Shown here: positions 19,921 to 60,760 of the stretch, piece after piece
How the letters are laid out: each line of letters opens with the position of its first letter
How positions within the stretch are numbered: the first letter of the stretch is position 1
Source of the DNA: an uncultured Gammaproteobacteria bacterium
GTDB lineage: Bacteria; Patescibacteriota; Patescibacteriia; UBA1558; UBA10009
Length of the DNA stretch: 64,000 nucleotides
Assembly: GCA_964588165.1 (NCBI GenBank)
Contig: CAZPMS010000001.1
Location: 27,303 to 91,302 of the forward strand
Direction of reading: 5' to 3'
Notes under the pieces: model-generated
The model's database searches: none
The model's input: only the letters and a program-made list of their open reading frames with translations
What the model was told of the DNA's origin: nothing
Program-made: the position numbers and the translations under genes

Positions 19921-19923
19921 AAA

Positions 19924-20017
19924 TTCTAATAGCTACGCTGACGTCGCTGACAGACGCGAACCGCGAACTAATTTAGTCTGCGGTCAGCGGTTTGCGCTAG
20001 TTCGCGCTGTCTGCGTT
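19924..20017. repeat. GC-rich imperfect palindromic intergenic element (family C, AGCTACGCTGAC head); encodes the last ~7 codons of the downstream paralog
   Basis: agctacgctgacgtcgctgacagacgcgaaccgcgaacta...tagttcgcgctgtctgcg inverted repeat; ~60% GC within a 30% GC genome. Confidence 0.6.
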
Positions 20018-21409: not shown

Positions 21410-21466
21410 AACGCGCCACAACTTCGCTGTACGAACGCGCCACGGCGCGTTCCTACGTGGCGCGTT
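21410..21466. repeat. REP-like palindromic element, family A (GTACGAACGCGCC / GGCGCGTTCCTAC)
   Basis: aacgcgccac..tgtacgaacgcgccacggcgcgttcctacgtggcgcgtt, nested inverted repeats. The same core flanks and interrupts the RAYT gene at 47.9-48.4 kb. Confidence 0.65.
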
Positions 21467-24490: not shown

Positions 24491-24574
24491 TAAACTTAAA
24501 TTTAATAATCATGCTGTAGAATAATAATAAAAAATTTTAAAATTTTATTCCACATTTTTTTCTACAAATTAATA

Positions 24575-24603
24575 TTGACAATATCTTTGAAATAGTTTAT
24601 AAT
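24575..24603 (+). promoter_or_regulatory. Consensus sigma70 promoter TTGACA-17-TATAAT
   Basis: TTGACA at 24575-24580, 17-nt spacer, TATAAT at 24598-24603; a GGGAGG RBS lies at 24634-24639 downstream. Confidence 0.6.
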
Positions 24604-24644
24604 CTGAAATTATTGTTCTTTCATTCTTTTTTAGGGAGGTTTTT

Positions 24645-24809
24645 TTGAAGAAGCCAGAAGGTGCTACAAGGTGCAAGAGATGCGGGTTGATACATTATGA
24701 TGGATCTAATTTGATCCAAGATTCAGAAACCAAGCATTGGCTTTGTAACACGCCTTTTTGTTTCGGAATTGTTCACCCGATCAGAATCGCTTTCAAGCAC
24801 CAAAACTAA
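24645..24809 (+). CDS. Candidate small (54 aa) zinc-ribbon protein gene with TTG start; alternatively a structured small RNA
   Basis: Perfect promoter, then GGGAGG, 5 nt, TTG. ORF (L/M)KKPEGATRCKRCGLIHYDGSNLIQDSETKHWLCNTPFCFGIVHPIRIAFKHQN with CxxC...CxxxxC. ~44% GC versus ~27% surroundings. Below the length cut-off of the supplied ORF track. Confidence 0.35.
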   Translation: MKKPEGATRCKRCGLIHYDGSNLIQDSETKHWLCNTPFCFGIVHPIRIAFKHQN

Positions 24810-24917
24810 CCTTTATACACAACATTACGACCTGTGGTGACGCTATGTGCGCAGCTAATGTTATCAAGATCAGCGATGATCCAAAACCCAAAAGCTAGCT
24901 TTCCCTATTCATTCAAG

Positions 24918-24949
24918 AGCCGTATGAGATATTCTCTGCGGCTTTTTTC
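24918..24949 (+). terminator. Rho-independent terminator (copy 1 of a 44-bp direct repeat)
   Basis: agccgtatgagatattctctgcggct followed by TTTTTT. Confidence 0.6.
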
Positions 24950-24962
24950 TTTATTAAATAAC

Positions 24963-25454: not shown

Positions 25455-25499
25455 AATTTTTAGAAATTAATTATTCTTTATATATAAATTATTTTTTTA

Positions 25500-25545
25500 G
25501 GCCGTATGAGATATTCTCTGCGGCTTTTTTTCTTTTAAATAACAA
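25500..25545 (+). repeat. Copy 2 of the 44-bp terminator-containing direct repeat (ggccgtatgagatattctctgcggcTTTTTTTcttttaaataac)
   Basis: ~90% identical to 24919-24962; lies immediately upstream of the start of the 163-aa gene. Confidence 0.55.
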
Positions 25546-25552
25546 TTTTTTA

Positions 25553-25600
25553 GTAGCTACGCTGACTGACGCTGACTTGCCTGCCTACCGGCAGGCACGG
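25553..25600. repeat. GC-rich palindromic element (family C head AGCTACGCTGAC plus CCTGCC..GGCAGG hairpin, family D core)
   Basis: agctacgctgactgacgctgacttgcctgcctaccggcaggcacggac, immediately 3' of the ALDH stop. Confidence 0.5.
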
Positions 25601-25602
25601 AC

Positions 25603-27090: not shown

Positions 27091-27217
27091 ATATTTATTA
27101 TTACTACTAATTACTAATCTGTACTAATATACGAATTCATTATTATTTTAGCTAAAAGAATGATTTTTAATGATGGTATTATTCGTATATTTGTATTGAT
27201 TTGTAATTCATAATCAA

Positions 27218-28789: not shown

Positions 28790-29611
28790 TTACCAAGCAG
28801 TCCAACCGCCGTCTATTACTAAATTAGCACCTGTCATATAACTGGAAGCATCACTGGCCAAAAAGATTACTCCACCATTTAATTCATCTTTTTTTGCCAT
28901 TCTGCCCAAAGGAGTTCTTTTGTTATATTCTTCCAAAAATGATTCGTCTTGATTATTAAAAACTCCTCCTGGAGTTAAAGTGTTAACCCTAACGCCATCT
29001 TTTGCCCAGTAAGTTGCCAAATATCTGGTTAAGTTAACTAAAGCTGATTTTGTGGCGCTGTAAGATGCAGGTTTAGTAAATTTTTCCGGCATGCTTTCAT
29101 AAATCCTTTGATCAGGAGAAACTAACCCATAGGTTGAACAAATATTTATAATGCTGCCTTTTTTATTGGCTGCCATCCTGGCACCTATAACCTGGCAGGG
29201 TAAAAAAACGCCAGTTAAATTGACTTCCAAAACTTTATTCCAAATTTCTAAAGGATAACCCTCAAAAGTTGCTGTAGCTTCACTGCCAGAACCTGGTGGG
29301 TTATCCAGTGCCGCACAGTTAATTAAAACTTCCGGAATGCCTAAGTCTGCTTCCACCTTCTTTAAGGTTTCTGAAAGTTGATCTTTATTAGTAACACTGA
29401 CTTTATAATATTTAACATTATTAACTTCTTTAAGGTCACCAGTTAACTCATCACTAATATCAAAAACAGCCACTTTGGCGCCTGCATCAGCTAAGGCTTT
29501 GGAAAAATTTGAACCCAGTTGCCCATTACCGCCAGTTATAATTGCTACTTTATTTATTAGACTGAAGATGTTTTCGATATAATTCATATTATTTAAATTA
29601 CCAATTAACAA
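28790..29611 (-). CDS. SDR-family oxidoreductase
   Basis: AIITGGNGQLGS Rossmann, YSATK catalytic YxxxK. The start could alternatively be M9 (29587). Confidence 0.85.
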   Translation of the reverse strand: MLIGNLNNMNYIENIFSLINKVAIITGGNGQLGSNFSKALADAGAKVAVFDISDELTGDLKEVNNVKYYKVSVTNKDQLSETLKKVEADLGIPEVLINCAALDNPPGSGSEATATFEGYPLEIWNKVLEVNLTGVFLPCQVIGARMAANKKGSIINICSTYGLVSPDQRIYESMPEKFTKPASYSATKSALVNLTRYLATYWAKDGVRVNTLTPGGVFNNQDESFLEEYNKRTPLGRMAKKDELNGGVIFLASDASSYMTGANLVIDGGWTAW

Positions 29612-29699
29612 TTTCCAATTGCCAATAAATTTTTAATTTGAAATTAATTAATTTATTAATTGATTGGATATTAGTAATTGGAAATTGGATATTTAATTC

Positions 29700-33669: not shown

Positions 33670-35054
33670 AACTTGTTGGATATATTTGATAATTTGTTTT
33701 TAGATTTAGTTAAAATATTTTTTATTATTTCTAAATCAAATTGAGTAAATTTAAACATACCTGTAAATGCGTGCCATTTTAAACCTAATTTTTTTATAGT
33801 GCTAAAATAAATTATCAATCCCACTAAAAAATTGCTTATTATAAATTCAAAAGCCATACCGTAGATCCCAAATATTGGCAAAAGTAAAGAATTTAAAATA
33901 ATCACTAAAAATATTTTTAAAACAGGAAAGTAGGCTAGAATTTTCTGCTGTCTTAGGCTGAACAGTATAGAATTAGCAAACCTGTTTACCCCACCAAAGC
34001 TAAGAGGCACCACGCTTAAAATCATAAAAATTGGTATAGATGCCCAATACTTAGGGAAGGCAATATAAACAAAAATTGGCATCAAAATAAGACCGGCTAA
34101 ATAAGTTAAAACCAAAATTATGGTTGAATATTTGCTACCGTAAATAAAAGCTCTTTTAAGGCGACTTCTATCTTTAATAATTTCCGGCAGTAATTGGTTA
34201 ACAACTTTTTTAATCGGAATCAATCCATCTAAATGGGTATAAAGGTTCTTGCCAAAATTATAAATAGCCACTGCTTCGGTACTGATAAAAAATTTAATCA
34301 GCCAGGGCTTAATATTTTTTTGGATTTTTGAGACAACCCCGGCAAAAATATTCCACTTGCCATGAGCTTTTATAATCTTCCATAATTCCAGATTTTTTAA
34401 ATCTATTTTAAAACCGCTAAACCAGCACATTAGATCTTTCCGGTTGTAAAAAAAGATAAAAATAATAGTTAAAAAATTAGCCACCACCATGGTAAAAATA
34501 ATCTTGGCTATACCTGGATCAAAATAAAATACTATCGTAAGAAGTATCACAATCTTTATTAGTTCTTTCAAAAAAGTAAAACTACCCATTTGGAAAAACT
34601 TTTTATTAACTTTAAAATTAATTCTTAAAAAATTATCCAAACCCCTAAATAAAACTAAAAACGCTCCTAACTTAATAAATAAGCTGATTGAATTATAGCC
34701 ATATTGGCTGGCAATCATCTCGGCGCCAAAAAATAAAACAGCAAAAGCAATAAAACCCAGTATAATCTTAGTTATAAAATATTCTTGAAAAATTTTTTTG
34801 GCCTTAGATAGTTCCCCTTTCCCCCGCTCTATCATAATATCGGTAGCCACTAACTGATCCATGCTTTCAAATAAAATTGAGCTGGCAAAACCGATTATTG
34901 CCAAAACTAAAACATATAGTCCATATTCATAAATTGTTAAAAGGTATAAAACAATAAATGAATTAACAATTCCTATTACCTGGCTCAAGGTTCCCCAAGA
35001 ACCCAAAAAAACTGTGCCTTTTAATGCTTCGGCTGTTAATGATTTTTGGCTCAT
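33666..35054 (-). CDS. Wzx-like polysaccharide/oligosaccharide flippase (MOP superfamily)
   Basis: 462 aa, ~12 TM, no soluble domain; overlaps neighbours by 4 nt. Confidence 0.65.
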   Translation of the reverse strand: MSQKSLTAEALKGTVFLGSWGTLSQVIGIVNSFIVLYLLTIYEYGLYVLVLAIIGFASSILFESMDQLVATDIMIERGKGELSKAKKIFQEYFITKIILGFIAFAVLFFGAEMIASQYGYNSISLFIKLGAFLVLFRGLDNFLRINFKVNKKFFQMGSFTFLKELIKIVILLTIVFYFDPGIAKIIFTMVVANFLTIIFIFFYNRKDLMCWFSGFKIDLKNLELWKIIKAHGKWNIFAGVVSKIQKNIKPWLIKFFISTEAVAIYNFGKNLYTHLDGLIPIKKVVNQLLPEIIKDRSRLKRAFIYGSKYSTIILVLTYLAGLILMPIFVYIAFPKYWASIPIFMILSVVPLSFGGVNRFANSILFSLRQQKILAYFPVLKIFLVIILNSLLLPIFGIYGMAFEFIISNFLVGLIIYFSTIKKLGLKWHAFTGMFKFTQFDLEIIKNILTKSKNKLSNISNKL

Positions 35055-36232
35055 AAAATTGATTTATAGATATCAACCAATTTGCTTGCGGACTTTTCCC
35101 AGGAAAAAACCTGGCCTCTGGCTAATCCTTTACTTGTTAATTGTTCTTTTAATTCCTGATTTTGTAAAACCTGATCAATGCCGGCAGCAATATCACTTAA
35201 ATCCAAAGGGTCAACATATTTTACTGCATCACCGGCCACTTCTTTATAAACCGGAATATCAGATACCACTTGGGCAACCCCAACTTTCATCGCTTCAACC
35301 AATGGCAGCCCAAAACCTTCATTTAAACTTAAATTTACGGCCAGGTCTGCCGCACCATAAATTGCTGGCATATCTTCTGCCTCTATATCTTTAGTAATTA
35401 TTACATCATTTTCAAGATTATTTTCTTTAATAATATTATCCACTTTTTCTGAATAATCTTTTAAATGCCTTCCGCCAACCAATATTAAATATTGATTGAT
35501 TTTATATTCCCTTTTTAATTTGGCATAAGCTTTAACTAAACGGTGGACATTTTTATGCGGATCAAAACGGCCTACCTGGACAATATAAGGTTGTTTAATA
35601 TTATATTTCTTTTTTAAAACATCCCGGCATCCCGGCATCCCGGCATCCTCGATTGGCCTAAAATTATCTTTGCAACTATTATAAAAATAATTAATTTTAT
35701 CTGATTTAATATTATAGTATTTTGCGATCTGCTTTTTGCCGGTTTCTGAAACAGCTAAAAATATATCCACAAAAGGTTTGGCCAAATATTTAATATGGAA
35801 ATTCCACCAACTGCCGGCTTTCCTAAAATGCTTAGGGGTGAACTTATCCGGCGCACCATGCAAGGTAACAACAAACTTTTTTATCTTGCCCCGCCACTTA
35901 GCAATTAAAAATCCCGGGTACAGATTGTGTCTGGGCACCATAAAAATATCAAACTTTTCTTTGGTGGTTATAAAAAACCATAGCCAGGAAAAAGTCCCTG
36001 ATAGCATTGGTAGCTTAAAGGTTTTAATGGTAATATTTTTTGCCAGCTTACAAACAGGGTGGTGGCATTTGCCCTCCCTGTGCACCAAAGTTAAATCAAT
36101 CTGATCAGCATAGTTATTTACCAGCTGCTCAATCAGTTTTTGGGAATAAGTGGCTTGGCCTTTGGTTTTCCTGTCTATGTCGTCTGTAAACCAAGCAACT
36201 TTAATTTTGTTATTATTTTTCATTTGATTCAT
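35051..36232 (-). CDS. GT4 family glycosyltransferase
   Basis: EGFGLPLVEAM motif. The ORF-track start (36319) reads 29 extra codons through a GC-rich repeat; the start was moved to M30 (MNQMKNNNKIKVAWF). Confidence 0.8.
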   Translation of the reverse strand: MNQMKNNNKIKVAWFTDDIDRKTKGQATYSQKLIEQLVNNYADQIDLTLVHREGKCHHPVCKLAKNITIKTFKLPMLSGTFSWLWFFITTKEKFDIFMVPRHNLYPGFLIAKWRGKIKKFVVTLHGAPDKFTPKHFRKAGSWWNFHIKYLAKPFVDIFLAVSETGKKQIAKYYNIKSDKINYFYNSCKDNFRPIEDAGMPGCRDVLKKKYNIKQPYIVQVGRFDPHKNVHRLVKAYAKLKREYKINQYLILVGGRHLKDYSEKVDNIIKENNLENDVIITKDIEAEDMPAIYGAADLAVNLSLNEGFGLPLVEAMKVGVAQVVSDIPVYKEVAGDAVKYVDPLDLSDIAAGIDQVLQNQELKEQLTSKGLARGQVFSWEKSASKLVDIYKSIL

Positions 36233-36343
36233 AGTCCGTGAAAGTCTGTGTCTGACCGCGTCGTCTGTGCTTGACTGCGAAAGTCCGTACAGACATACAC
36301 GGGCAAATACAGACGACACTGACCTACGCGGACCTGCACAGAC
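36233..36343. repeat. GC-rich palindromic element, family B (GTCGGTGTCGTCTGTAC.../...CGGACGACACGGAC), inverted orientation copy
   Basis: Shares >20-nt blocks (gaaagtccgt, acagacgacac, gacctgcac) with the reverse complement of the copies at 51367-51491 and 52596-52735. Confidence 0.6.
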
Positions 36344-36652
36344 TTATTTATTACCCTCTCCAATATTCTTATTCTTCTTTATAAAATATAAATTCCTGAT
36401 ATAAATTAAAATTGCTAAAAGTTGGCCCAAGAAGAAAACCGGATCACGCCTTACTATAGCGTAAACAAAAATTATTAAAGCGCCAATAATGCTTAAGTAC
36501 CAAAAATAAATTGGTATCACGCTCATTTTTGCTTTTTCTGAATACCACCACTGCACTACAAACCTTAAAAAGAAAATAAATTGCCCTAAAAAGCCGACAA
36601 TTAGCCAGTAGTCGTAGTTTATTGATTCGAGATAACTAATTATATTATCCAT
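36344..36652 (-). CDS. LAB_N (lipid-A-biosynthesis N-terminal domain) small membrane protein, usual partner of polyprenol-P-sugar GT2 enzymes
   Basis: WLIVGFLGQFIFFLRFVVQWWYSEKAKMSVIPIYFWYLSIIGALI...RRDPVFFLGQ signature. Confidence 0.75.
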   Translation of the reverse strand: MDNIISYLESINYDYWLIVGFLGQFIFFLRFVVQWWYSEKAKMSVIPIYFWYLSIIGALIIFVYAIVRRDPVFFLGQLLAILIYIRNLYFIKKNKNIGEGNK

Positions 36653-36706
36653 GTCCTAAATTAATTAATAATTAATGATTAAAAAATAATGATCAATCAT
36701 TAATTT

Positions 36707-38425
36707 TCAATTTTTATTTATTAATCTGTATACCTCTACAAAAGGCCCATACCCTTGTATATTGTTTAAAGTATCATCAACTTCTCTAGGTGAATTAGGA
36801 ATGTCGTAAATTACTTCCAAGCTGTCTGACGGATAAAATTCTTGAATCAATACTTTATCAAATTTTTCTAAAGCACTATAGCGTTCCCACTTGCTGGGAA
36901 TCTTTAAATAATCTTTCTGCCAATATGAAACAATATAATAATCGGCCCTAACTCCCTCTACAAATAATTTATCAAAATCCAAATGGTGCCAATCATAAAT
37001 AAAGTAATTGGGTTTAGGATAATTTTCATCAGTCAATTGGCTTAGATATTTATCTTTAGTGTTTACCCAAAAGCTGTTGTTGTATCTTAAAAATTCAATG
37101 CTTTTTTTATCCTTTACTAGGGCGTGGATTATATCTTCTTCATCAATAATAACTCTGCTACCTGCCGGAATATTTTCCCCAATCCAATCAAGGGTTTGGA
37201 TTCTGGTATCGGTAACTGTAAATTTTTGCAAAAACCTGGCATCTGTATAAAATGCCGGAATTAATAAAATAACGGCTAAAATATAAGTTAGGCCTTTTTT
37301 TTCTTTAATTTTAAATTTTAAAATAACTTGATATAAGCCGTAGGCGGCAAATAAAAGCAAGATCGGTATTAGTGGAATGTTAAATCTATGGAAAGCTTTG
37401 GAAAAGAAGAAAAACAAGGAAAACAAATAAATTATAGGAAAGCCGATAAATAGCCATTTTTCAAACCAATTCCAAATTTTATTTTTAAAGATGAAATAAA
37501 AACCTGCTACTGCAAATAACAATAAATATTTTAAATCATACAATAAAGAGACCAGAATGGTTTTAATGTTCTCAACTATATCAGAGCTTCTTTCCACATT
37601 GGAAATTTGCTCAAAATTAAATTCAACCCCAAAATTACTCAAGACTATGGCTATCACCCTGCCAAATTGGCGCAGGATTGAATGAGTATTGCCTAAAATA
37701 AAAAAGGTGACGATTACCAATAAAATTACTAAGCTAATAATTATTTTTTTATTAAAAAACTGGTTAAAGTTTTTCGGCCTAAGATAATATGCATGAGCCA
37801 GCAGTAGCCAAGGCACCAATAAAATTGCCAAAAGGCCGGTGCCAAAACCTAGGCCCATAAAAACGGCAGACCAATAATAATATTTTTTACTGCCGGTTTT
37901 TGCCAGTTGCCATAATAAATAAACGGCCACTAAAATAAAAAAGCCTAAGGGTATCCAAAACCTGCCGGATACTGAACCATGCAAATGCAAAAAATCAAAA
38001 GCTAACCATAATGAGGCAACAACGCCAATTAATGGATTAAACAATTTTTTACCAAACTTATATAAAAACCAAACAGTTAAAGTTCCAAATAAAATTGAAA
38101 TTATCCGAGTGAAAATTAATAGTTGTTCGCTGTTTAATAAAACAAACTCTTTATAACCGGTAAGACCGGCAAATTGGCCAAAGACCATACCAACTAAACC
38201 GTAGATGACAATAAATGGCATTAATAAATATGAGGTTAAAGGCGGTAGATAGCTAAATGCCAGCCACAATGTTTTTTGGTCCATCATTTTTAAAGCATTG
38301 GCCAATTGGATGTACTCATCGCCAAACAGCCTTAAAGGCAAGCCGTAATTAATTGGCAGCAACCTTATTAACAGAGCTGCCAACAAAATTCCTATTAAGA
38401 CCCAAGTTGTTTTTGCAAATTTCAT
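36707..38425 (-). CDS. GT-C fold glycosyltransferase, GT39/GT83 (PMT / ArnT-like) family
   Basis: 572 aa polytopic; first periplasmic loop carries GDEY (DE motif), as in ArnT/Pmt. Confidence 0.75.
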   Translation of the reverse strand: MKFAKTTWVLIGILLAALLIRLLPINYGLPLRLFGDEYIQLANALKMMDQKTLWLAFSYLPPLTSYLLMPFIVIYGLVGMVFGQFAGLTGYKEFVLLNSEQLLIFTRIISILFGTLTVWFLYKFGKKLFNPLIGVVASLWLAFDFLHLHGSVSGRFWIPLGFFILVAVYLLWQLAKTGSKKYYYWSAVFMGLGFGTGLLAILLVPWLLLAHAYYLRPKNFNQFFNKKIIISLVILLVIVTFFILGNTHSILRQFGRVIAIVLSNFGVEFNFEQISNVERSSDIVENIKTILVSLLYDLKYLLLFAVAGFYFIFKNKIWNWFEKWLFIGFPIIYLFSLFFFFSKAFHRFNIPLIPILLLFAAYGLYQVILKFKIKEKKGLTYILAVILLIPAFYTDARFLQKFTVTDTRIQTLDWIGENIPAGSRVIIDEEDIIHALVKDKKSIEFLRYNNSFWVNTKDKYLSQLTDENYPKPNYFIYDWHHLDFDKLFVEGVRADYYIVSYWQKDYLKIPSKWERYSALEKFDKVLIQEFYPSDSLEVIYDIPNSPREVDDTLNNIQGYGPFVEVYRLINKN

Positions 38426-39357: not shown

Positions 39358-39379
39358 ATGTTTTAAAATTAATTTTATT

Positions 39380-39490
39380 TAGAATAACACTGATGGTTCG
39401 CGGATGGCGCGCAGATAACTCACAGATATCAGCGAGTTATCCGTGATTTATCAGTGGGTATTCAGTGAATCTCCGTGATTTATCCGCGTT
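39380..39490. repeat. GC-containing repeated element with internal direct and inverted repeats (TCCGTGATTTATC x2)
   Basis: gataactcacagatatcagcgagttatccgtgatttatcag...ctccgtgatttatccgcg; overlaps the stop of the GT4 gene. Confidence 0.4.
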
Positions 39491-47666: not shown

Positions 47667-48224
47667 TTAATAATTTTTATCGGTTTCCCATTTAATAGGA
47701 TTATTTATAATATACTTTTGAATTTCTGATAATGATTTTTCATTTCTAATTATATGGTCGTAATATCTGGCTTGCCAAAAGAAATATTCAAAACCTTTTT
47801 TATTGCATTCCTTCTTAACCGCGCCTTTATAATGATTGATTATTGATGGCAATGAATTATTTATTAATGAACCAAATCTATTTTCATGAATTGTACGAAC
47901 GCGCCGCGCCTCCTCTGTACGAACGCGCCGTGGCGCGTTCCTACGGCGTGGCGCATTTTTATTATCAATTATTACAATTCCGTGAATATGATTTGGCATA
48001 ATTATGAATCTATCCAACCTAACATTCGGATATCTTTTAGAAATTCTTTTCCAATTTCTTTTGGCAATTTTACCTATTGCTGATAATCTCATTCTACCTT
48101 CTATAACCTCGCCAAAATAATGGCTCCCATCCTTTATACAAATTGTAATAAAATAATAGCCATCGCTGGAATAATCATATCCAGGCAGCCTAAATTGCTT
48201 TTTTATTTTAAATTGAAAAACCAC
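47667..48224 (-). CDS. REP-associated tyrosine transposase (RAYT, IS200/IS605 Y1 HUH family, COG1943) carrying an in-frame REP insertion
   Basis: RLPGYDYSSDGYYFITICIKDG, HUH motif PNHIHGIV, C-terminal FFWQARYYDHIIRNE...YIINNPIKW. A 22-aa segment NAPRRRNAPRRVRTEEARRVRT is encoded by a REP doublet. Confidence 0.75.
   Translation of the reverse strand: MVFQFKIKKQFRLPGYDYSSDGYYFITICIKDGSHYFGEVIEGRMRLSAIGKIAKRNWKRISKRYPNVRLDRFIIMPNHIHGIVIIDNKNAPRRRNAPRRVRTEEARRVRTIHENRFGSLINNSLPSIINHYKGAVKKECNKKGFEYFFWQARYYDHIIRNEKSLSEIQKYIINNPIKWETDKNY
47891..47956. repeat. 66-bp family-A REP doublet lying inside, and in frame with, the RAYT ORF
   Basis: ttgtacgaacgcgccgcgcctcctctgtacgaacgcgccgtggcgcgttcctacggcgtggcgcat; 66 nt = 22 codons. 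Confidence 0.6.
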
Positions 48225-48262: not shown

Positions 48263-48383
48263 TTGTACGAACGCGCCTTTATAATGATTTATTATTTGTA
48301 ATGATGAATTTTAATAATGGACGCATTTATTTATATCAATTGTACGAACGCGCCGCGGCACGTTCGTACGTTTATGGCGCGTT
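48263..48383. repeat. Family-A REP elements upstream of the RAYT plus a degenerate copy of the RAYT internal segment between them
   Basis: ttgtacgaacgcgcc at 48263-48277; AT-rich ~60 nt resembling RAYT nt 47824-47890; tgtacgaacgcgccgcggcacgttcgtacg (9-bp perfect palindrome) at 48341-48370; overlaps the kinase gene's stop. Confidence 0.6.
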
Positions 48384-50427: not shown

Positions 50428-51357
50428 TTATTCATTTTTCTTTTTAAATACTACGGTAAATGTTGCGCCATTTTTAGGAAACAGTTTAGCTAACAACTTA
50501 TCATATAATCTCAACATAACATTTTTGTGGGCGTACATAAACACGCGGTACAAATGGTTATAAGTTTCAAAAAAATTAATTTTATAACCATTCAAATCCT
50601 TTTGCTGAATTTCTTTTACACTAAAGCCGGAGGCTGAATAAATATCCACTATCTTCCCCATTTTCCAGGGTGAAAGAGGCTCTGTAATTAAACCTTCCAT
50701 TATCAATTGCTTATTAACTCTTGCCAGTTCTGGAGTATAACGTGATTTATCTTGAAATTTTTTATCAAATAATTTTTTTAAACCTATCCGCTTCATTATA
50801 GCTTCTATAAAAAATTTGGGATTAGTTAAAACTCGCCACAGCTTGTAGTTAAACCATAAAAATTTATGGCTGAAAAAATCTTTATGCGGTTCGTGGGCGA
50901 TAATTAACAACCCGCCAGGTTTTAATACTCGGTTTATTTCTGCAAAAGTTTTTGGTGTATCCGGTAAATGGTGTAAAACTGAATTCAGGGCCACAATATC
51001 CACTGATGAATCCTCCAGCTCCAAACTCTCGTCATTCAGTTTTAAATAATTGAATTTATTGTTAAAGTTTTTATTATTTATATTTGATTTGCATCTAGAA
51101 AGCATTTTTTCAGAAACATCAGAACATACAACCTCATCTTCTTCTTTTAAATATCCTGATATCTGCAATGGTACAAAACCGGTGCCCGATCCAATATCCA
51201 AAATTTTTAATGGATTGGCTGATTTAAAAAACTTACTGGCTAAAACCTGCCACCTTTGTTTTTCCAGCTCAAAAATTTCCGGATGCTCGCTGGTGTATGA
51301 ATCAGCTTCTACATCATGGAAAATTTCATTAACTCTGATTATAAATTCTTTGTTCAT
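50428..51357 (-). CDS. Class I SAM-dependent methyltransferase
   Basis: ILDIGSGTGFVP motif I, VLKPGGLLII motif. The track start at 51441 reads through the GC-rich repeat; the start was moved to M29. Confidence 0.75.
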   Translation of the reverse strand: MNKEFIIRVNEIFHDVEADSYTSEHPEIFELEKQRWQVLASKFFKSANPLKILDIGSGTGFVPLQISGYLKEEDEVVCSDVSEKMLSRCKSNINNKNFNNKFNYLKLNDESLELEDSSVDIVALNSVLHHLPDTPKTFAEINRVLKPGGLLIIAHEPHKDFFSHKFLWFNYKLWRVLTNPKFFIEAIMKRIGLKKLFDKKFQDKSRYTPELARVNKQLIMEGLITEPLSPWKMGKIVDIYSASGFSVKEIQQKDLNGYKINFFETYNHLYRVFMYAHKNVMLRLYDKLLAKLFPKNGATFTVVFKKKNE

Positions 51358-51366
51358 AATTTTAAA

Positions 51367-51491
51367 TCGTCCGTGCAGGTCGGTGAGCGTCGGTGTCGTC
51401 TGTACTTGTCTGTGTATGTCGGTGTAATAACGGACTTTCACCGACTCACACGGACGACACGGACAAACGCGGACTTACCACAGGCACCCCC
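51367..51491. repeat. GC-rich palindromic element, family B
   Basis: gtcggtgagcgtcggtgtcgtctgtacttgtctgtg ... cacggacgacacggacaaacgcggac: long imperfect inverted repeat. Confidence 0.6.
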
Positions 51492-51501
51492 TAATATTTA
51501 A

Positions 51502-52584
51502 TTACTTTGTAACTTTAATAAAAACCTCTAACAGCTTATTTACTAAATTATCAATATTATGATCACTAACTACAATTTGACGTAATTTATTGCCCCACTC
51601 CTGCTTTTCCTCAGCTTTCATATTCATAACTAATTCTAAATGTTCCACCAAGATACTAGCATCTTTTTTAGCAAACTGGGCAAAGGGAAAATCTTTAAAA
51701 ATTTCTTTAAAGCCCGGATTGGAATTAATAACCACGGTGCCGGTGGACATAGCTTCTAAAACGGTTTTATCCAAGCTGCCCGTTTGGCCTGTGTTTATAA
51801 AAACATCCGCCTCTTGATATGTCCTGACAATTTCTTGATGAGGAACAGAGCCGATAAATCTGACATTATTTTCTAACTTCTTATTTTCAACTTCCTTTTT
51901 TAATCCTTCAAAATAAACCTCTTGTACTTTAAGCGGTACTGATCCGATAATATAAAAAGTTAATTGATGACCTTTTTGATTAACCAAAATATCAGCCGCC
52001 TTAATTAAAGTTTCTATATTTTTAACCGGTGAAATTCTGCCCACCCAGATTATTTTTTTAACCTCTTTATTATATTTTTCTTTTTGTTTGAAATAATCAG
52101 TATCCACTCCTTGGCCGGTAATAATTTTCTTATTTGTTTTTATAGGAAAGCCACCCTCTGATGAAGTAACAATTTTAGTTACCAGCTTGGCAGCTAATTT
52201 GGATTTCCAACTTAAATTACCGTGGGCTTTCCACCAAATAATCGGTTTGCCAAAAAATAAAGCCAGTGGCCAAATTAATAACGCAAAAATTTCTATCATT
52301 TGCACAAAAACTACGTCCACATCTTTGTTTTTAAATAGTTGAAAACAATGTTTGTAAAAATTCCTAAGATAACCTCTTTTGCCTTCACCTTTTTCTTTGC
52401 CGATTGACTTTACCTTTACATTATCCGGTAAATCATCATGCTCCCCTTCCTTTAAACATACAACTGTAATTGAGTGAACCTGCTCGGCCATTAATTTAAG
52501 CCATTTATAAAACGGCGCCAGTAAATTATCATGCTTATCTACGCTTTGGGTTAAGTAAAGAATTTTTAGATCTTTTTTATCCAT
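51502..52584 (-). CDS. GT4 family glycosyltransferase
   Basis: 360 aa; GT-B halves; C-terminal GT4 EX7E-like region. Confidence 0.8.
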   Translation of the reverse strand: MDKKDLKILYLTQSVDKHDNLLAPFYKWLKLMAEQVHSITVVCLKEGEHDDLPDNVKVKSIGKEKGEGKRGYLRNFYKHCFQLFKNKDVDVVFVQMIEIFALLIWPLALFFGKPIIWWKAHGNLSWKSKLAAKLVTKIVTSSEGGFPIKTNKKIITGQGVDTDYFKQKEKYNKEVKKIIWVGRISPVKNIETLIKAADILVNQKGHQLTFYIIGSVPLKVQEVYFEGLKKEVENKKLENNVRFIGSVPHQEIVRTYQEADVFINTGQTGSLDKTVLEAMSTGTVVINSNPGFKEIFKDFPFAQFAKKDASILVEHLELVMNMKAEEKQEWGNKLRQIVVSDHNIDNLVNKLLEVFIKVTK

Positions 52585-52595
52585 ATTATTTTTGT

Positions 52596-52735
52596 CAGTA
52601 CATGTCAGTAAAGGTCGGTGTCGTCTGTACTTGTCTGTGCCTGCCTGCCGGCAGGCAGATAAGTCCGTGTAAAATACAGACTTCTACCGACCAACGCGGA
52701 CGACACGGACAGGCACAGACTTTCACAGACTTTTC
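52596..52735. repeat. GC-rich palindromic element, family B, with embedded CCTGCC-TGCCGGCAGGCAG palindrome (family D core)
   Basis: aggtcggtgtcgtctgtacttgtctgtgcctgcctgccggcaggcag...acgcggacgacacggacaggcacagac; overlaps the AsnB stop codon. Confidence 0.6.
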
Positions 52736-54698
52736 ACTTTATAAATGTCTTATACCACAAGGCAAACATATATAGCCGCCAGATTTTATCAAAATTATTT
52801 TTTTTATTTGAATTATGCTCAGCCAAAATCTTTTTGATATATTCTTCGTTGAAATAACCCAAATTTAAAAATTGTCGGCCGAGTAAAACACTTTCAATTT
52901 CATCTTTAAGCGGACTTTGCTTAATCCATCTGTTTAAAGGAATTGAAAAACCTTTTTTATGCCTAAAGATAACTTCGTCTGGTAAAATACCTCTCATACT
53001 TTCTTTAAACAGATATTTGGTTTTTAATCCGTTAAGTTTATATTTAAAAGGAATTTTGGCAATCAGTTCTACCAGCTGATGGTCTACCAACGGCGCTCGT
53101 GACTCCAGCGAGACTGCCATAGTGCACCTGTCTACTTTAGTAAAAAACATATCTGGTAAAAGTGACTTAAACTGGCTGTATAAAATAGCTTCCAGCTTAT
53201 CTTTACCGTCATACTCATTAACTAAATTTTGACGCAGGGCTTTGGCATCTCCGCCGAATCGGCGGTCTACTTTAAATTGATTATAAACTTCTTTATTTAA
53301 AAGATCTTCAGTAAAACCGGTAGTCATATTCAAAAATATGTCCAAAGGTTTTTTTGAAGAATGGAGCTGGGTTTCGGCCAACCGTTTTATTTTATGGAAA
53401 TACCTGATAAAACTTTCCCGCTCATCATTATCCGGAATTGCTTTAGTGATTTTGTAAATGAATTTTCTAATAACCGACGGAAATTTATGATACAGCCGGG
53501 CCAGTTTTAAGGCTTTATACCATTCATATCCGGCAAACAGTTCATCTCCGCCATCACCGGTTAAGGCTACGGTTACAAACTCGCGGGCTGTTTTAGCCAC
53601 ATAATAGGTAGGAATTATAGAAGCGTCTGCAAAGGGTTCATCCATATGCCAAACTAATTTAGGCAAAATTTCTAAAACCTTAGGTTCAATTATAAATTCA
53701 TGGTGGTTGGTTTTAAATTTATTGGCCACCAGCCGGGCGTATCTTAATTCCGAAAAATCTTCCTCCTTAAAACCTACAGCAAATGTTTCTACAGGTTTAC
53801 TGGAGTTTCTGGCCATCATTGCCACTACAGCTGATGAATCTACTCCGCCGGATAAAAATGCTCCTAAAGGGACATCGGAAACCATTCTGCTTTTTACCGA
53901 TTCTTTAAACTGTTTTAAAAATAAATTTTTAATTTCCTCTTCCGGGAAATTAAATTTTTCTTTAAATGAAACCTGCCAATAATCCTTAATCCTTAATCTC
54001 CGAGGAGTCCGAAGATTCTCGGAGTCCTTCGGACCTTGTTCATCAATTATTAATAACTGTCCTGGCTCTAACTTCTTAACACCTTTGATAATACAATATG
54101 GTGCCGGCACCCTACCATAAACCAAATAATAATGCAGAGCTACTTTATCAACTTCCCGTTTAACTTCTGCCGATTCCAGAATTGATTTTAATTCCGAAGC
54201 AAATAGTAATTGATTTTTGTCTTGATAATAATAGATTGGCTTTTCCCCTGCTCTATCGCGGGCAATAATTAATTTTTTTACTTTTTCATCCCAAATTGCC
54301 AAGCCAAACATGCCGTTTAAATGCTGAACAAAATCCTCACCGTATTCTTGGTATAAATGGACAATGGCTTCGGTATCGGAATTGGTATAAAATTGATAAC
54401 CTTTCTGTTCTAAATCTTGCCTAAGTTTTTTAAAATTATAAATTTCTCCATTTAAAATAACTTGGACCGATTTATCTTGATTATGGATTGGCTGATCACC
54501 ACTAACTAAATCAATAATCTTTAATCTGCGCATGCCTAAACCGATTGAACCGTTTTCGCCCGAGGCGAATCCGCCTTTGGCGGAAAAATAAAAACCGTCG
54601 CCATCCGGACCGCGATGCTCTAAAACTGACGTCATCTTTTTTATTAAAGATTGGTCGGCTTGTCCTTTAAATTTTAATTGTCCCACGATACCACACAT
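52734..54698 (-). CDS. Asparagine synthase (glutamine-hydrolysing) family amidotransferase (AsnB/WbpS-like)
   Basis: MCGIVG N-terminal nucleophile, SGGVDSS PP-loop; 654 aa. Contains a short GC-rich nested palindrome in frame at ~54008-54050. Confidence 0.9.
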   Translation of the reverse strand: MCGIVGQLKFKGQADQSLIKKMTSVLEHRGPDGDGFYFSAKGGFASGENGSIGLGMRRLKIIDLVSGDQPIHNQDKSVQVILNGEIYNFKKLRQDLEQKGYQFYTNSDTEAIVHLYQEYGEDFVQHLNGMFGLAIWDEKVKKLIIARDRAGEKPIYYYQDKNQLLFASELKSILESAEVKREVDKVALHYYLVYGRVPAPYCIIKGVKKLEPGQLLIIDEQGPKDSENLRTPRRLRIKDYWQVSFKEKFNFPEEEIKNLFLKQFKESVKSRMVSDVPLGAFLSGGVDSSAVVAMMARNSSKPVETFAVGFKEEDFSELRYARLVANKFKTNHHEFIIEPKVLEILPKLVWHMDEPFADASIIPTYYVAKTAREFVTVALTGDGGDELFAGYEWYKALKLARLYHKFPSVIRKFIYKITKAIPDNDERESFIRYFHKIKRLAETQLHSSKKPLDIFLNMTTGFTEDLLNKEVYNQFKVDRRFGGDAKALRQNLVNEYDGKDKLEAILYSQFKSLLPDMFFTKVDRCTMAVSLESRAPLVDHQLVELIAKIPFKYKLNGLKTKYLFKESMRGILPDEVIFRHKKGFSIPLNRWIKQSPLKDEIESVLLGRQFLNLGYFNEEYIKKILAEHNSNKKNNFDKIWRLYMFALWYKTFIK

Positions 54699-54739
54699 AT
54701 ATTGGTAATCAGTAATTGGTAACTAGTTAATTAAAAAAT

Positions 54740-54792
54740 ATCTGCGAATTATCTGCGTGTTATCCCTGCCTCGCCGGCAGGCAGGTGCGGCT
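54740..54792. repeat. GC-rich element with CCTGCCTCGCCGGCAGGCAGG palindrome (family D)
   Basis: atctgcgaattatctgcgtgttatccctgcctcgccggcaggcaggtgcgg; supplies the last ~12 codons of the GT4 ORF. Confidence 0.4.
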
Positions 54793-55927
54793 CATCTGCG
54801 ATAATCTTCTGCCACATTCTAGAAACTGACTCCACGCTCTTAAACCATGAATAATTATTTTTTATTTCTTCAAAAAGTTTATTTCCCAAAGCTACTCTCA
54901 ATTCTTCATTAACTAATAAAACAGTCATCTTCCTATAACATTCATTTTGATTATCAATATCAAACAGTAATTTTTTATCAAAAATTATTGAAGTTGCCCC
55001 AGTGGTTTTAGAGGCCAAAGTAGGTGTTTTTTGCATAGCAGCTTCTAAAATAACTTTGCCAAAACTTTCGTGCCTGGAAGGTAGTATTAAAACTTTTGCC
55101 AAGCGGTAATAGCTGGCTAAATCTTCATGGCTGACCTCGCCCAATAGTTCTACTCTGTTATGCAAGCCTTCTTTTTTTATTATTTCCAATAAATGCTTCC
55201 TTAAACTGCCTTCGCCAACAATTAAAAAATGGCTCATGGGGACTTCCTTTAAAATGTTTTTAAAAGACTTTAAAAAAAAGCTCAAATTTTTTTCTTTCTC
55301 CAAGCGCCCTACAAATAAAATAACTTTTTTATCTTGATATTTGGCTGCCAGTGATTTAAAAACTTCTTCATTAAATCCAACAAATTTTTCTAGATTAACC
55401 GGTGTTGGTATAACTATAATTTTTTTCTCATCAATACCGGCCTTGATTAACTTACGTTTTATTAATGGATTAACAACCCTTAACTTATCCGCCCTTTTAG
55501 CTAAAAATTTAGAAAGTTTTAGTAAAAAAAAGTTGATCTTTTTTTCATCTAGCCAATCCTTGTTATCCCAAAAATCTCCATGCCAGTTCATTACCAGAGG
55601 AATTTTATGTTTTCTTTTTAACAAATAACCAACTAAGCCGTAGATCATCGGATCTTGGGTATTAATTAAATCAATTTTTTCTTTGGTTATTATGGCTGAA
55701 GATTTTTGATAAAGGTTTTTTAAAATTGAAAAACTGCTGTTGCCTTCTGATGGAATTGCTTCTACGTTTCCCCGCATTACTTTTTTTAATTTTTCCAGTC
55801 CATGGCATTTTATAACTATAAAAAGCCTTTCCAAACTTTTAGCGTAAGCAAGGTGCCTCTGCCAAACATCGCCGCTGGAATTATTTTTTAAAAAAATTGG
55901 ATCTGAACTGATAATTAGTACTTTCAT
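54749..55927 (-). CDS. GT4 family glycosyltransferase
   Basis: 392 aa; ESFGKVILEAAMQKTP EX7E region. Confidence 0.8.
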   Translation of the reverse strand: MKVLIISSDPIFLKNNSSGDVWQRHLAYAKSLERLFIVIKCHGLEKLKKVMRGNVEAIPSEGNSSFSILKNLYQKSSAIITKEKIDLINTQDPMIYGLVGYLLKRKHKIPLVMNWHGDFWDNKDWLDEKKINFFLLKLSKFLAKRADKLRVVNPLIKRKLIKAGIDEKKIIVIPTPVNLEKFVGFNEEVFKSLAAKYQDKKVILFVGRLEKEKNLSFFLKSFKNILKEVPMSHFLIVGEGSLRKHLLEIIKKEGLHNRVELLGEVSHEDLASYYRLAKVLILPSRHESFGKVILEAAMQKTPTLASKTTGATSIIFDKKLLFDIDNQNECYRKMTVLLVNEELRVALGNKLFEEIKNNYSWFKSVESVSRMWQKIIADEPHLPAGEAGITRR

Positions 55928-59674: not shown

Positions 59675-60760
59675 ATGGAAAAAATCATTTATTTAGTAAC
59701 TAAATCTGAATGGGGCGGCGCCCAGGAATATATTTATAACCTGGCAACATCACTGCCTAAAGATAAATTTGATGTTTTAGTTTTGGCCGGTGAAGGCAAT
59801 GGTAAACTATTCAAAGAATTGGCCAAACAAAACATAAAATATCGTAAACTCAAATACACTAAACGATCTATAAACATTTTTTATGACAAACTGGCTCTTT
59901 TGGAATTGATAAAAATATTTAAACATGAAAAGCCGAACATCATCCATCTAAATAGTTCCAAAATAGGTTTTTTAGGCAGCCTAGCCACAAAATTTCTACC
60001 CACTACAAATTACCCACTACAAACTATTTACACCGCCCACGGCTGGGTTTTTAATGAACCGCTCCCCTTCTTATCTAAAAAGCTTTATTATTTTATTGAA
60101 AAATTATCAGCCAAATGGAAAGATACAATTATTACCGTTTCTAAAAATGATGAACAGATAGCAAATAAGTTTAAATTTAAGTCAAAAATAATTACTATTC
60201 CCAACGCTGTTGATCCTGATAATCTCGATTTTTTGAATAAAGACGAGGCAATAAAAAAAATCAGTAAGAACGCGCCCTGGCGCCTTCCTTCCAAGCTAAT
60301 AGGAACTATTGCAAATCTCTATCCCACTAAAGGACTTAACTATTTAATTGATACGGCAAAACTTTTACCTCAATATAAATTCATAATAATCGGTGAAGGA
60401 CCAGCTAGAAAAAATTTAGAAAATCAAATTAAGCATTTGACTTTAAAAAATATAATATTGAAGGGCAGTATTCCACAGGCTCACAAATATTTAAAAGCTT
60501 TTAGCTGTTTTATTTTGCCTTCGGTTAAAGAGGGCATGCCTTATGTAATTCTAAAGGCTATTGCTTCTGATGTGCCGATTGTTACCACTTGCGTTGGCGG
60601 CCTACCGGAAGTTGTAGACAACAATTTTTTGGTTAAACCAGCCGACCCTAAAGCTTTAGCTGATAAGATTAATGAGGTTATTAAAAATCCTGATTTAAAA
60701 CAACAACACACTCCTCCCAGTTTTCATGAGTTTTTAAAGAAAACAATTGAATTATATTAA
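59675..60760 (+). CDS. GT4 family glycosyltransferase
   Basis: 361 aa; KEGMPYVILKAIASDVPIV. Confidence 0.8.
   Translation: MEKIIYLVTKSEWGGAQEYIYNLATSLPKDKFDVLVLAGEGNGKLFKELAKQNIKYRKLKYTKRSINIFYDKLALLELIKIFKHEKPNIIHLNSSKIGFLGSLATKFLPTTNYPLQTIYTAHGWVFNEPLPFLSKKLYYFIEKLSAKWKDTIITVSKNDEQIANKFKFKSKIITIPNAVDPDNLDFLNKDEAIKKISKNAPWRLPSKLIGTIANLYPTKGLNYLIDTAKLLPQYKFIIIGEGPARKNLENQIKHLTLKNIILKGSIPQAHKYLKAFSCFILPSVKEGMPYVILKAIASDVPIVTTCVGGLPEVVDNNFLVKPADPKALADKINEVIKNPDLKQQHTPPSFHEFLKKTIELY

Follow-up and report, generated by a model that had tools for sequence, protein, structure and literature searches.

The genomes of CPR bacteria (Patescibacteria) are regarded as streamlined and repeat-poor. In other bacteria, ERIC and Correia/NEMIS repeats change the stability of mRNAs by way of RNase E or RNase III, and the STRR sequences of cyanobacteria are short tandemly repeated repetitive heptamers, with small dispersed repeats nested inside them. 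The ERIC/IRU elements of Enterobacteria and Vibrio (~127 bp) are imperfect palindromes that lie within operons in either orientation, are co-transcribed, and are present or absent at orthologous junctions of related genomes. Correia/NEMIS elements are small (100-155 bp), noncoding MITEs with inverted ends that lie near genes, form hairpins in mRNA and have empty orthologous sites. The GC clusters of yeast mitochondria and the RPEs of Rickettsia are GC-rich palindromes that invade AT-rich compact genomes, with some families in frame inside genes, and mycobacterial MIRUs are placed exactly between the stop and start codons of operon genes. REPs and REPINs are GC-rich extragenic palindromes just downstream of coding regions, the REPIN, made of two inverted REPs that are each a palindrome, forming a hairpin of roughly 100 nt. 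Both are mobilized by RAYTs, which are IS200/IS605-like HUH tyrosine transposases, and REPs number from tens to thousands per genome. A REP is a short stem-loop with a 5-13-bp stem, a 2-20-nt loop and an unpaired terminal GTAG or CGTC (PMC3733652), and a TIGR array consists of tandem 36-nt units with edge and loop repeats beside a Nop-domain Tas gene (PMC12045711). Here we describe three copies of a long, GC-rich, imperfect palindrome, family B, in the genome of an uncultured, ultra-small CPR bacterium. Family B is akin to ERIC, MITEs and REPINs but is a member of none of them. All positions refer to the window, by which we mean the whole 64-kb stretch of DNA that was analyzed.

A preliminary description of the window had reported three related GC-rich palindromes, each filling the spacer between the stop and start codons of consecutive genes. 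Repeat finder groupings recovered the three copies essentially where they had been placed: B1 at 36233..36343 (111 nt, 55.0% GC), B2 at 51369..51488 (120 nt, 56.7% GC) and B3 at 52594..52731 (138 nt, 52.9% GC), none with an assigned strand. The gene coordinates likewise bear out that each occupies the stop-to-start spacer of co-directional, minus-strand genes of a glycan cluster. The strong contrast in composition was real, but the figures given for it, 60% GC against 30%, became 53-57% against 34.4% for the window when measured. The repeat finder grouped the left arms as direct repeats of 74-85% identity (family D1) and the right arms as direct repeats of 72-79% identity (D3), and its inverted families I1-I5 joined arms of different copies that are 74-80% complementary. 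In nhmmer searches the copies matched each other with E-values of 1e-35 to 1e-38.

The flanking genes, named by Pfam, all lie on the minus strand. Upstream of B1 is a gene for a LAB_N-domain protein of 102 aa (36344..36652), whose stop codon is at 36344, and downstream is a GT4 glycosyltransferase gene (35051..36232). B3 lies between a gene for an AsnB-type asparagine synthase (52734..54698), upstream, and a second GT4 glycosyltransferase gene (51502..52584), downstream; B2 separates this second gene from that of a class I methyltransferase (50428..51357). The closest homologues of the flanking glycosyltransferases from named taxa, which include Candidatus Magasanikbacteria, Campbellbacteria and Sungbacteria, are 39-48% identical, and the closest overall reach 66%, which points to an isolated CPR/Patescibacteria lineage as the host.

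The elements had also been said to create false N-terminal extensions of 29-30 codons in the predicted open reading frames. This was correct for B1 (29 codons, from GTG 36319) and nearly so for B2 (28 codons, from GTG 51441), but B3 creates no extension. The extensions have no counterpart in five homologues, which begin at the position of MKNNNK, and the source annotation calls the short gene forms. The start of the glycosyltransferase gene downstream of B1 is thus ATG 36232 or, more likely, ATG 36223, and that of the methyltransferase gene is ATG 51357. B1 alone can be read through in frame; a stop codon interrupts B2, and B3 is in another frame. Coupling ORFs like those of MIRUs were rejected on these grounds. 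All open six-frame translations of B1-B3, joined into a chimera of 717 aa and compared with 5.8 billion proteins, matched nothing at E <= 10.

Each element proved to be an inverted pair of arrays of degenerate 10-nt words, about 4-6 words per arm, rather than a simple palindrome. Read on the plus strand, the words of the left arm are GTCNGTG followed by 3 nt and those of the right arm are 3 nt followed by CACNGAC; CACGGAC is the commonest form, with CACAGAC, CGCGGAC and CACCGAC as variants, and the termini of the elements are GTCYGTG and CACRGAC. Word orientation is fully segregated between the arms (B1, ++++-----; B2, ++++++----; B3, ++++++------). The motif GTCNGTG occurs 23 times in the window compared to 4.5 expected, and 19 of these occurrences fall inside B1-B3; outside the elements it is not enriched (4 observed, 4.5 expected).

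The arrays share irregularities as well as words. Spacings within an arm follow the pattern 10,10,9,10,10, with 10,9,10,10 as its mirror image (10,10,9,10,10 | 10,9,10 in B2), and the single 9-nt step comes from an irregular core, GTGTCGTCYGT, which is common to all six arms and lies at the same place in each. A 25-nt degenerate pattern of this core matches five of the six arms, with 0.00 matches expected from 100 shuffles. The shared core on the plus strand, GTCGGTGTCGTCTGTACTTGTCTGTG, is exact in B2 (51389..51414), identical in B3 (52614-52639), and serves as a marker of homology within the family. B2 and B3 further agree over two exact blocks, of 27 and 17 nt, in which non-word positions are identical too. 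The blocks that had been quoted as shared, GTCGGTGTCGTCTGTACTTGTCTGTG and CGGACGACACGGAC, are exact in B2 and B3, but B1 carries variants. Since independent slippage would not reproduce the core, the 9-nt step and the exact blocks, these features show, at the level of sequence, that the three copies form a true family related by descent. B2 and B3 point the same way (80% identity in direct and 70% in inverted alignment), and B1 is probably inverted relative to B2, judging from identities of 82% in inverted and 73% in direct alignment.

Individual copies carry signs of local change. The right end of B3 (52714-52733) holds a perfect 2x10-nt tandem duplication of CACAGACTTT, and other period-10 pairs were seen too. 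Nested in B3 is a 20-nt mini-palindrome, CCTGCCTGCCGGCAGGCAGA (52641..52660, no strand assigned), which is missing at the aligned positions of B1 and B2. Hairpins like it were also seen at 25581 and 54766 of the window and in relatives. The nested mini-palindrome shows that junction elements of this sort accumulate insertions.

The three full copies all lie inside 17 kb of one gene cluster, and none was seen in the remaining ~60 kb of the window or over 15 kb beyond its ends. An nhmmer search of 196 kb of related CPR loci found no family-B sequence, a scan of a viral collection with the family-B pattern gave 0 matches, and a 35-nt pattern had 8 matches in a metagenome collection, none from the source organism, whose samples are apparently absent from that collection. 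The locus itself is 100% identical across contigs from several JGI, ENA and Logan metagenomes. All population copies being identical, we saw no presence/absence polymorphism of family B within the species. Literature searches returned nothing relevant on CPR repeats, on RAYT (REP-associated tyrosine transposase) genes in CPR bacteria or on the heptamer.

Comparison with related CPR lineages revealed how the elements relate to the genes around them. One relative (L129) keeps the AsnB-glycosyltransferase-methyltransferase gene order, its glycosyltransferase 66% identical to that of the window, with junctions of 2 and 11 nt; in a second (L130; 62% identical) the spacer between the AsnB and glycosyltransferase genes is 13 nt. 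Around more distant orthologues of the glycosyltransferase between B2 and B3, the two junctions are 9 and 1 nt in L148 and 1 and 7 nt in L149. The corresponding spacers in the window are 149 and 144 nt. The C terminus of AsnB and both termini of the glycosyltransferase align residue for residue with those of the relatives, and the methyltransferase N terminus matches them except for a short indel. As the protein ends are unchanged, the long spacers represent DNA added between the genes, and the junctions of 1-13 nt in four related lineages mark B2 and B3 as lineage-specific. These alignments show B2 and B3 to be insertions into intercistronic junctions. B1 is probably a lineage-specific insertion too: junctions upstream of orthologues of the gene 3' of B1 measure -11, +4 and -8 nt, the upstream neighbor being a different gene in these cases, so that the junctions are not strictly orthologous.

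Long junctions are common in the window, where 8 of 40 co-directional junctions (20%) are at least 100 nt, compared to 3 of 68 (4%) in the relatives, whose median junction is 4 nt. Set against the empty sites, the insertions show at most a target-site duplication of AAA, at B3, and nothing consistent over the three A/T-rich flanks, in which no conserved target motif could be defined. No parent IS or transposase gene with family-B ends was found in about 80 kb.

When family B is held against the described systems, the ERIC/IRU elements are close in behavior: they share with it the size (110-140 nt) and form of an imperfect palindrome, the place within an operon, either orientation, co-transcription, and presence or absence at orthologous junctions of related genomes. 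Family B differs in that its arms are arrays of 10-nt words, its host is a CPR bacterium and three copies were seen. Homology to ERIC was rejected because blastn found no match to family B in 5,426 genomes of E. coli, a species with ERIC, REP and BIME sequences; blastn against plasmids and phages gave no match either. As expected of a MITE, B1-B3 are small (111-138 nt, below 500 bp) and noncoding, their ORFs being spurious, and they are absent from the 1-13-nt orthologous junctions of L129, L130, L148 and L149; with Correia/NEMIS MITEs they share the traits listed above. Their ends are inverted copies of the word (GTCYGTG...CACRGAC), but as this word repeats throughout, no discrete TIR can be delimited, nor is a TA or other target-site duplication demonstrable; Correia elements, moreover, are not built from tandem decamers.

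REPs and REPINs resemble family B in their position just downstream of coding regions, REPINs also in hairpin size, and a RAYT with GTAG-tagged REPs lies in the same window. Family B nevertheless failed as a REP in three respects: its arms are about 50 nt long in an element of 111-138 nt whose structure is interrupted every 3 bp; CGTC is found only inside the paired core GTGTCGTCYGT; and the RAYT is flanked by another family, described below as family A. A REPIN was rejected as well, because the arms are direct word arrays in one orientation with no internal palindrome. STRRs share with family B the intergenic short tandem words, the hairpins formed from inverted arrays and the nested tiny palindromes; they differ in unit length (7 nt, compared to 10), in phylum, and in that family-B copies are homologous as whole elements. 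GC clusters and RPEs are similar as GC-rich palindromes in AT-rich compact genomes, and their in-frame members have a parallel in the window in family A inside the RAYT ORF; they have no sequence relation to family B, which was seen between genes only. MIRUs are similarly placed, but are direct tandem units with coupling ORFs overlapping the stop and start codons, whereas family B is palindromic. TIGR arrays of the TIGR-Tas system were rejected: family B repeats every 10 nt in inverted arms and has no Tas gene beside it.

The window holds other palindromic repeats. A RAYT homologue is encoded on the minus strand at 47667-48224 (NCBIfam NF047646, E = 4.5e-17). It scores 62 bits against this model, below the equivalog cutoff of 80, and 23.2 bits against Pfam Y1_Tnp, for which the cutoff is 23. 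L129 has an orthologue that is 64% identical; a look-up of the protein returned the same single locus only. A family-A unit begins with GTAG or GTAC, continues with GAACGCGCC, a loop of 4 nt and GGCGCGTTC, and fits the published definition of GTAG-tagged REPs (PMC3733652). The 10 half-sites of this family are found directly upstream of the RAYT gene, in frame within it, in the spacer 21429-21456 and in a glycosyltransferase gene at 60264-60291, so that the RAYT is flanked by and contains family-A rather than family-B sequence. The RAYT and the family-A REPs together point to a system in this CPR genome, predicted to be working or to have worked recently, that would move palindromes as single-stranded hairpins. 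A link between family B and the RAYT is possible; relatives that carry a RAYT gene are without family B.

A partial relative of family B at 25558..25602 (no strand assigned) contains a GTCCGTG word, followed by a GCCTGCC..GGCAGGC mini-palindrome and then GTCAGCG decamers, and, read on the minus strand, begins right after the stop codon of an aldehyde dehydrogenase gene (25603). Three further spacers contain inverted arrays of other words: CGCTGAC/CGCGAAC at 19921-19996, CRCNGAT at 39358-39479 (with period 11 over 39427-39486), and AT-rich words with period 7 at 29596-29693 (29596/29663). Word-built palindromes are thus general in the gene junctions of this genome.

Scans of sequence collections for the family-B pattern yielded comparable arrays in other phyla. 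Inverted arrays of CACGGAC decamers were found in a Kiritimatiellia MAG (L067), Thermoanaerobaculia MAGs (L016, L043), an Acidobacteriota MAG (L088) and unassigned metagenome contigs (L125, L128); in a Haliangium MAG (L105) the word forms direct arrays. The four interpretable arrays all lie between co-directional ORFs, starting about 5-15 nt after the stop codon in L043, L088 and L125 and about 70 nt after it in L067. None matched Rfam. Taking two collection scans together, real decamer arrays were present at 12 of 125 loci; a scan of genome contigs with the 25-nt core gave at least 117 single matches in high-GC genomes, equivalent to codon noise. That family B is one case of a cross-phylum class of "decamer-word hairpins," new to description, seems to us quite improbable. 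The search pattern contained the word and the database held 600 Gb, so that the recurrence may be chance. If it were true, with the heptamer and its 10-nt phasing recognized by a conserved HUH or other transposase or by an RNA- or DNA-binding protein, it would amount to a new and widespread type of intercistronic element.

Because the elements lie inside a block of co-directional genes, they are probably transcribed, and the preliminary description had assigned them roles in the RNA, as processing or stability sites or decay barriers. The predicted hairpins were borne out: RNA of both strands folds into long imperfect hairpins with z-scores of -2.8 to -5.3 relative to dinucleotide shuffles. 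Folds of family B as single-stranded DNA are weak and diffuse. The G-U wobbles attributed to the hairpins fared less well. Mismatches of the G-T type do occur, but without strand bias (4 per copy would be G-U on the plus strand and 5-6 on the minus strand). Nor did RNAalifold find conserved base pairing among the copies beyond word identity. Its consensus for B1-B3 has 39 pairs, 0 of them compensatory, and a covariation term of +0.57, although absence of covariation among three sequences is weak evidence; all pairs join invariant word positions (GTC/GTG with GAC/CAC), leaving the fourth base and the 3-nt spacers unpaired. In-register complementarity of the arms (67-70%) equals the expectation for inverted arrays of a word with 6 of 10 positions fixed. 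When the order and orientation of each element's own 10-nt blocks were randomized, the z-score of the MFE was -2.2 for B1, -0.02 for B2 and -2.2 for B3. Nothing in these predicted folds indicates that selection maintains the structure of family B.

Searches for known RNA signals gave a similar picture. A terminator scan had no match at any family-B copy, and intrinsic (Rho-independent) terminators were rejected because the 3' flanks on the transcribed strand (AUGAAUCAA, AUUUAAAAUU and AAAAAUAAU) contain no U-tract. The whole window gave no Rfam match at gathering thresholds; at relaxed thresholds the region 51300-52800, which contains B2 and B3 and excludes B1, gave chance-level matches only (E >= 0.26, far below gathering). 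In B1 and B3 the base of the stem lies 2-4 nt past the stop codon, and all three copies are separated from the next start codon by 9-10 nt of AU-rich linker (taking 36223 as the start for B1). In the modeled folds the hairpin pairs only within itself, and the AU-rich region around the next start codon stays free. The mean unpaired probability from -18 to +10, in a 190-nt context, was 0.41, 0.39 and 0.70 at the three starts, compared to a window median of 0.51, so that these starts are no less accessible than those of other genes. Bridging by Shine-Dalgarno sites, suggested by G-rich motifs just 5' of B1 and B2, was rejected, as this genome barely uses such sites: SD-like motifs precede only 3-4 of 43 genes in the window.

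It is conceivable, if unlikely, that the elements are dedicated cis-acting RNA elements of the glycan operon, such as RNase III sites, 3'-exonuclease barriers or partial terminators, that set cistron levels. Their probable transcription, their fold energies relative to dinucleotide shuffles and the positions of stem base and linker relative to the stop and start codons are consistent with such elements. Against this, the covariation, wobble, block-shuffle, terminator and Rfam tests do not favor RNA roles: no consensus pair is compensatory, the G-U-type mismatches are strand-symmetric, one copy is probably inverted, the MFE is marginal against block shuffles (and unremarkable for B2), and no terminator, U-tract or Rfam family was found. 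In four related lineages, moreover, these junctions lack the elements and the operons function all the same. We hold it rather improbable that the palindromes instead arose in situ, each by independent slippage of a short GC-rich unit and a later template switch that made the palindrome, so that their likeness would reflect the same word only. The strict ~10-nt spacing, the perfect or near-perfect adjacent decamer duplicates, the inverted arrays of different 7-11-nt words in other spacers of the window and the CACGGAC-decamer arrays of unrelated phyla are all consistent with such an origin. It does not account for the exact 27- and 17-nt blocks of B2 and B3, with their non-word positions, or for a core and 9-nt step common to six arms, and the word is no commoner than expected outside the elements.

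The word arrays could alternatively be read as DNA-level binding sites, with 5-6 identical heptamers per arm on one face of the helix, bound cooperatively by a regulator, nucleoid protein or recombinase (arm-site or iteron-like) with a role in controlling or rearranging the glycan cluster. The 10-bp phasing and perfectly segregated orientation fit this idea, as do the unconstrained fourth position and 3-nt spacers, which a heptamer site would predict, and B1 coincides with a point where gene order breaks in comparison with other lineages. Yet no candidate gene for a binding protein or recombinase lies beside any copy, relatives with the same operon are without the elements, and the several unrelated word types in other spacers would need many binding proteins; we consider this reading very unlikely. 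Integron attC-type or other recombination sites separating mobile gene cassettes are scarcely credible: imperfect palindromes the size of long attC sites do lie between promoterless co-directional genes, but neither core motif (RYYYAAC or GTTRRRY) is present in any copy, whichever strand is read, no integrase was found in about 80 kb, and the AsnB-glycosyltransferase-methyltransferase order is kept in relatives that have no such elements. The attC reading is effectively refuted.

With moderate confidence, we instead regard family B as a small, lineage-specific family of noncoding, long imperfect palindromic repeats that resemble ERIC, MITEs and REPINs in behavior and spread at the DNA level. 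The copies would have spread by transposition of a hairpin-forming element or by duplicative recombination, and would then have lengthened locally by slippage of the 10-nt unit, as the doubled CACAGACTTT and the other period-10 pairs suggest. Their persistence in gene junctions only may reflect the tolerance of a compact genome for insertions at such places. In favor of this reading are the common descent of the copies, the very short junctions of relatives, the probable opposite orientation of B1, the duplicated and nested segments, the RAYT encoded in the window, the free start regions and the lack of an evident selected RNA structure. Against it stand the confinement of the copies seen to one gene cluster, the failure to define a target-site duplication, a target motif or a parent transposase, the uniformity of the population copies, and a RAYT that is flanked by family A and occurs in relatives that lack family B. 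Once in place, an element would be co-transcribed in the glycan operon and form a hairpin in the mRNA. RNases are unlikely to overlook a GC-rich hairpin of 110-140 nt in a polycistronic message that is AU-rich; if processing, decay or coupling is affected, the effect would be a by-product or, at most, a secondary co-option.

Family B introduces no new biological principle, as intergenic palindromic repeats that behave in this way are well known in other bacteria, and it is best described as a new, word-built variant within that familiar class. Its setting is a CPR genome in which GC-rich palindromes of at least three kinds share a 64-kb window: family B, the GTAG-tagged REPs and their RAYT, and the 20-nt mini-palindrome. 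Palindromic elements have expanded 20% of the co-directional junctions in the window to 100 nt or more, compared to 4% in relatives. For CPR MAGs, the consequences are errors in gene calling, in the form of false N-terminal extensions, and breaks in assembly. The decamer arrays also point to a possible route, slippage plus inversion, by which long palindromes grow. Finally, in a genome with so little use of Shine-Dalgarno sites, the locus is a natural experiment on long hairpins placed between tightly coupled cistrons, which may be neutral or may change expression.

The window encodes a homologue of the REP-associated tyrosine transposases (RAYTs) on the minus strand (47667-48224; NCBIfam NF047646, E = 4.5e-17; Pfam Y1_Tnp at the cutoff), with an HUH-like PNHIHGIV motif and a C-terminal Tyr region. 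One copy of this gene is present in every sample, and a related CPR genome carries an orthologue that is 64% identical (L129, 9694-10230). Our literature search found no paper connecting RAYTs or REPINs with CPR bacteria. A second family of GC-rich palindromes, family A, occurs at 21429-21456, 47893-47944, 48265-48369, and 60264-60291; its architecture, GTAG/GTAC-GAACGCGCC, a 4-nt loop, and then GGCGCGTTC, fits the definition of GTAG-tagged REPs. Family A half-sites number 10 in the window, compared with 0.26 expected. The RAYT ORF itself holds one family A dimer, which is in frame and translated as NAPRRRNAPRRVRTEEARRVRT, and the glycosyltransferase (GT) gene at 59675-60760 contains another apparent copy.

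Many short contigs end ~120 nt to the left or right of the RAYT gene. A metagenome contig (L003) stops exactly within the loop of B2 (51369-51488), one of the three family B palindromes between glycan genes, its end corresponding to window position 51437. Taken together, these breaks point to the palindromes as a cause of fragmentation in short-read assemblies of this organism. B1 (36233-36343) lies at a point where gene order differs: across 36233-38425 the window reads GT2-PMT_2-LAB_N-[B1]-GT, whereas the relatives L145 and L146 read LAB_N-GT2-MT-PMT_2-GT (MT, methyltransferase). With a palindromic spacer on each side of LAB_N, a rearrangement may have had its breakpoint at these repeats.

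Most of the other long spacers separating co-directional genes in the window consist of inverted arrays of short words with a 7-11-nt period (19921-19996, 25455-25602, 27091-27217, 29612-29699, 36653-36706, 39358-39479, and 54699-54824). Both GC-rich words (CGCTGAC, CGCGAAC, CRCNGAT, ATCTGCG) and AT-rich words (TCCAAT, TACRAAT, TGATTAA) are used, and the element at 54736-54824 extends into the upstream GT ORF at its 3′ end. Two copies of a 39-nt hairpin, GCCGTATGAGATATTCTCTGCGGC with a T-run after it, lie 582 nt apart and are 90% identical (24919-24957 and 25501-25539). The hairpin and T-run resemble a plus-strand terminator, but the surrounding gene block is on the minus strand. No ORF was called in the 472-nt spacer at 24491-24962.

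A mini-palindrome of ~20 nt, (G)CCTGCC-N-GGCAGG(C), was found repeatedly within other GC-rich junction elements of the window (25581-25598, 52641-52660, and 54766-54783), including nested in the family B repeat B3 (52594-52731). Copies in relatives (L133, 6882; L135, 11238) sit within a CysN/EF-Tu-like ORF. In its behaviour, this sequence resembles a mobile repeat of very small size.

Hairpins or arrays of the CACGGAC/GTCCGTG decamer that makes up family B were recovered from high-GC, unrelated bacteria (Kiritimatiellia, Thermoanaerobaculia, other Acidobacteriota, and Haliangium; L067 7290-7456, L043 1492-1589, L016 398-482, L088 4300-4363, L125 7515-7801, L128 296-420, and L105 2180-2313). 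Wherever ORFs were interpretable, these arrays lay between co-directional ORFs, starting ~5-15 nt (L043, L088, L125) or ~70 nt (L067) after the stop codon, and none matched Rfam. The search was word-biased, and these arrays may have been recovered by chance.

Shine-Dalgarno (SD) motifs are nearly absent, being present in 3-4 of 43 genes when all gene starts in the window are considered. The sequence upstream of genes is rich in A/T, and 4-nt overlaps between genes are numerous; these features suggest that initiation in this genome is coupled or SD-independent.

Upstream of AsnB (asparagine synthase) and other genes, the CPR relatives carry a junction hairpin family of their own, unlike that of the window (L129 4053-4217, L133 11667-11749, and L145 9040-9103), with the pattern TTTTTCGCT..AACTCCCC....GGGGT..AAACAG.TCCTCGCT. 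Thus, lineage-specific families of intercistronic hairpins seem to be common in this CPR clade.
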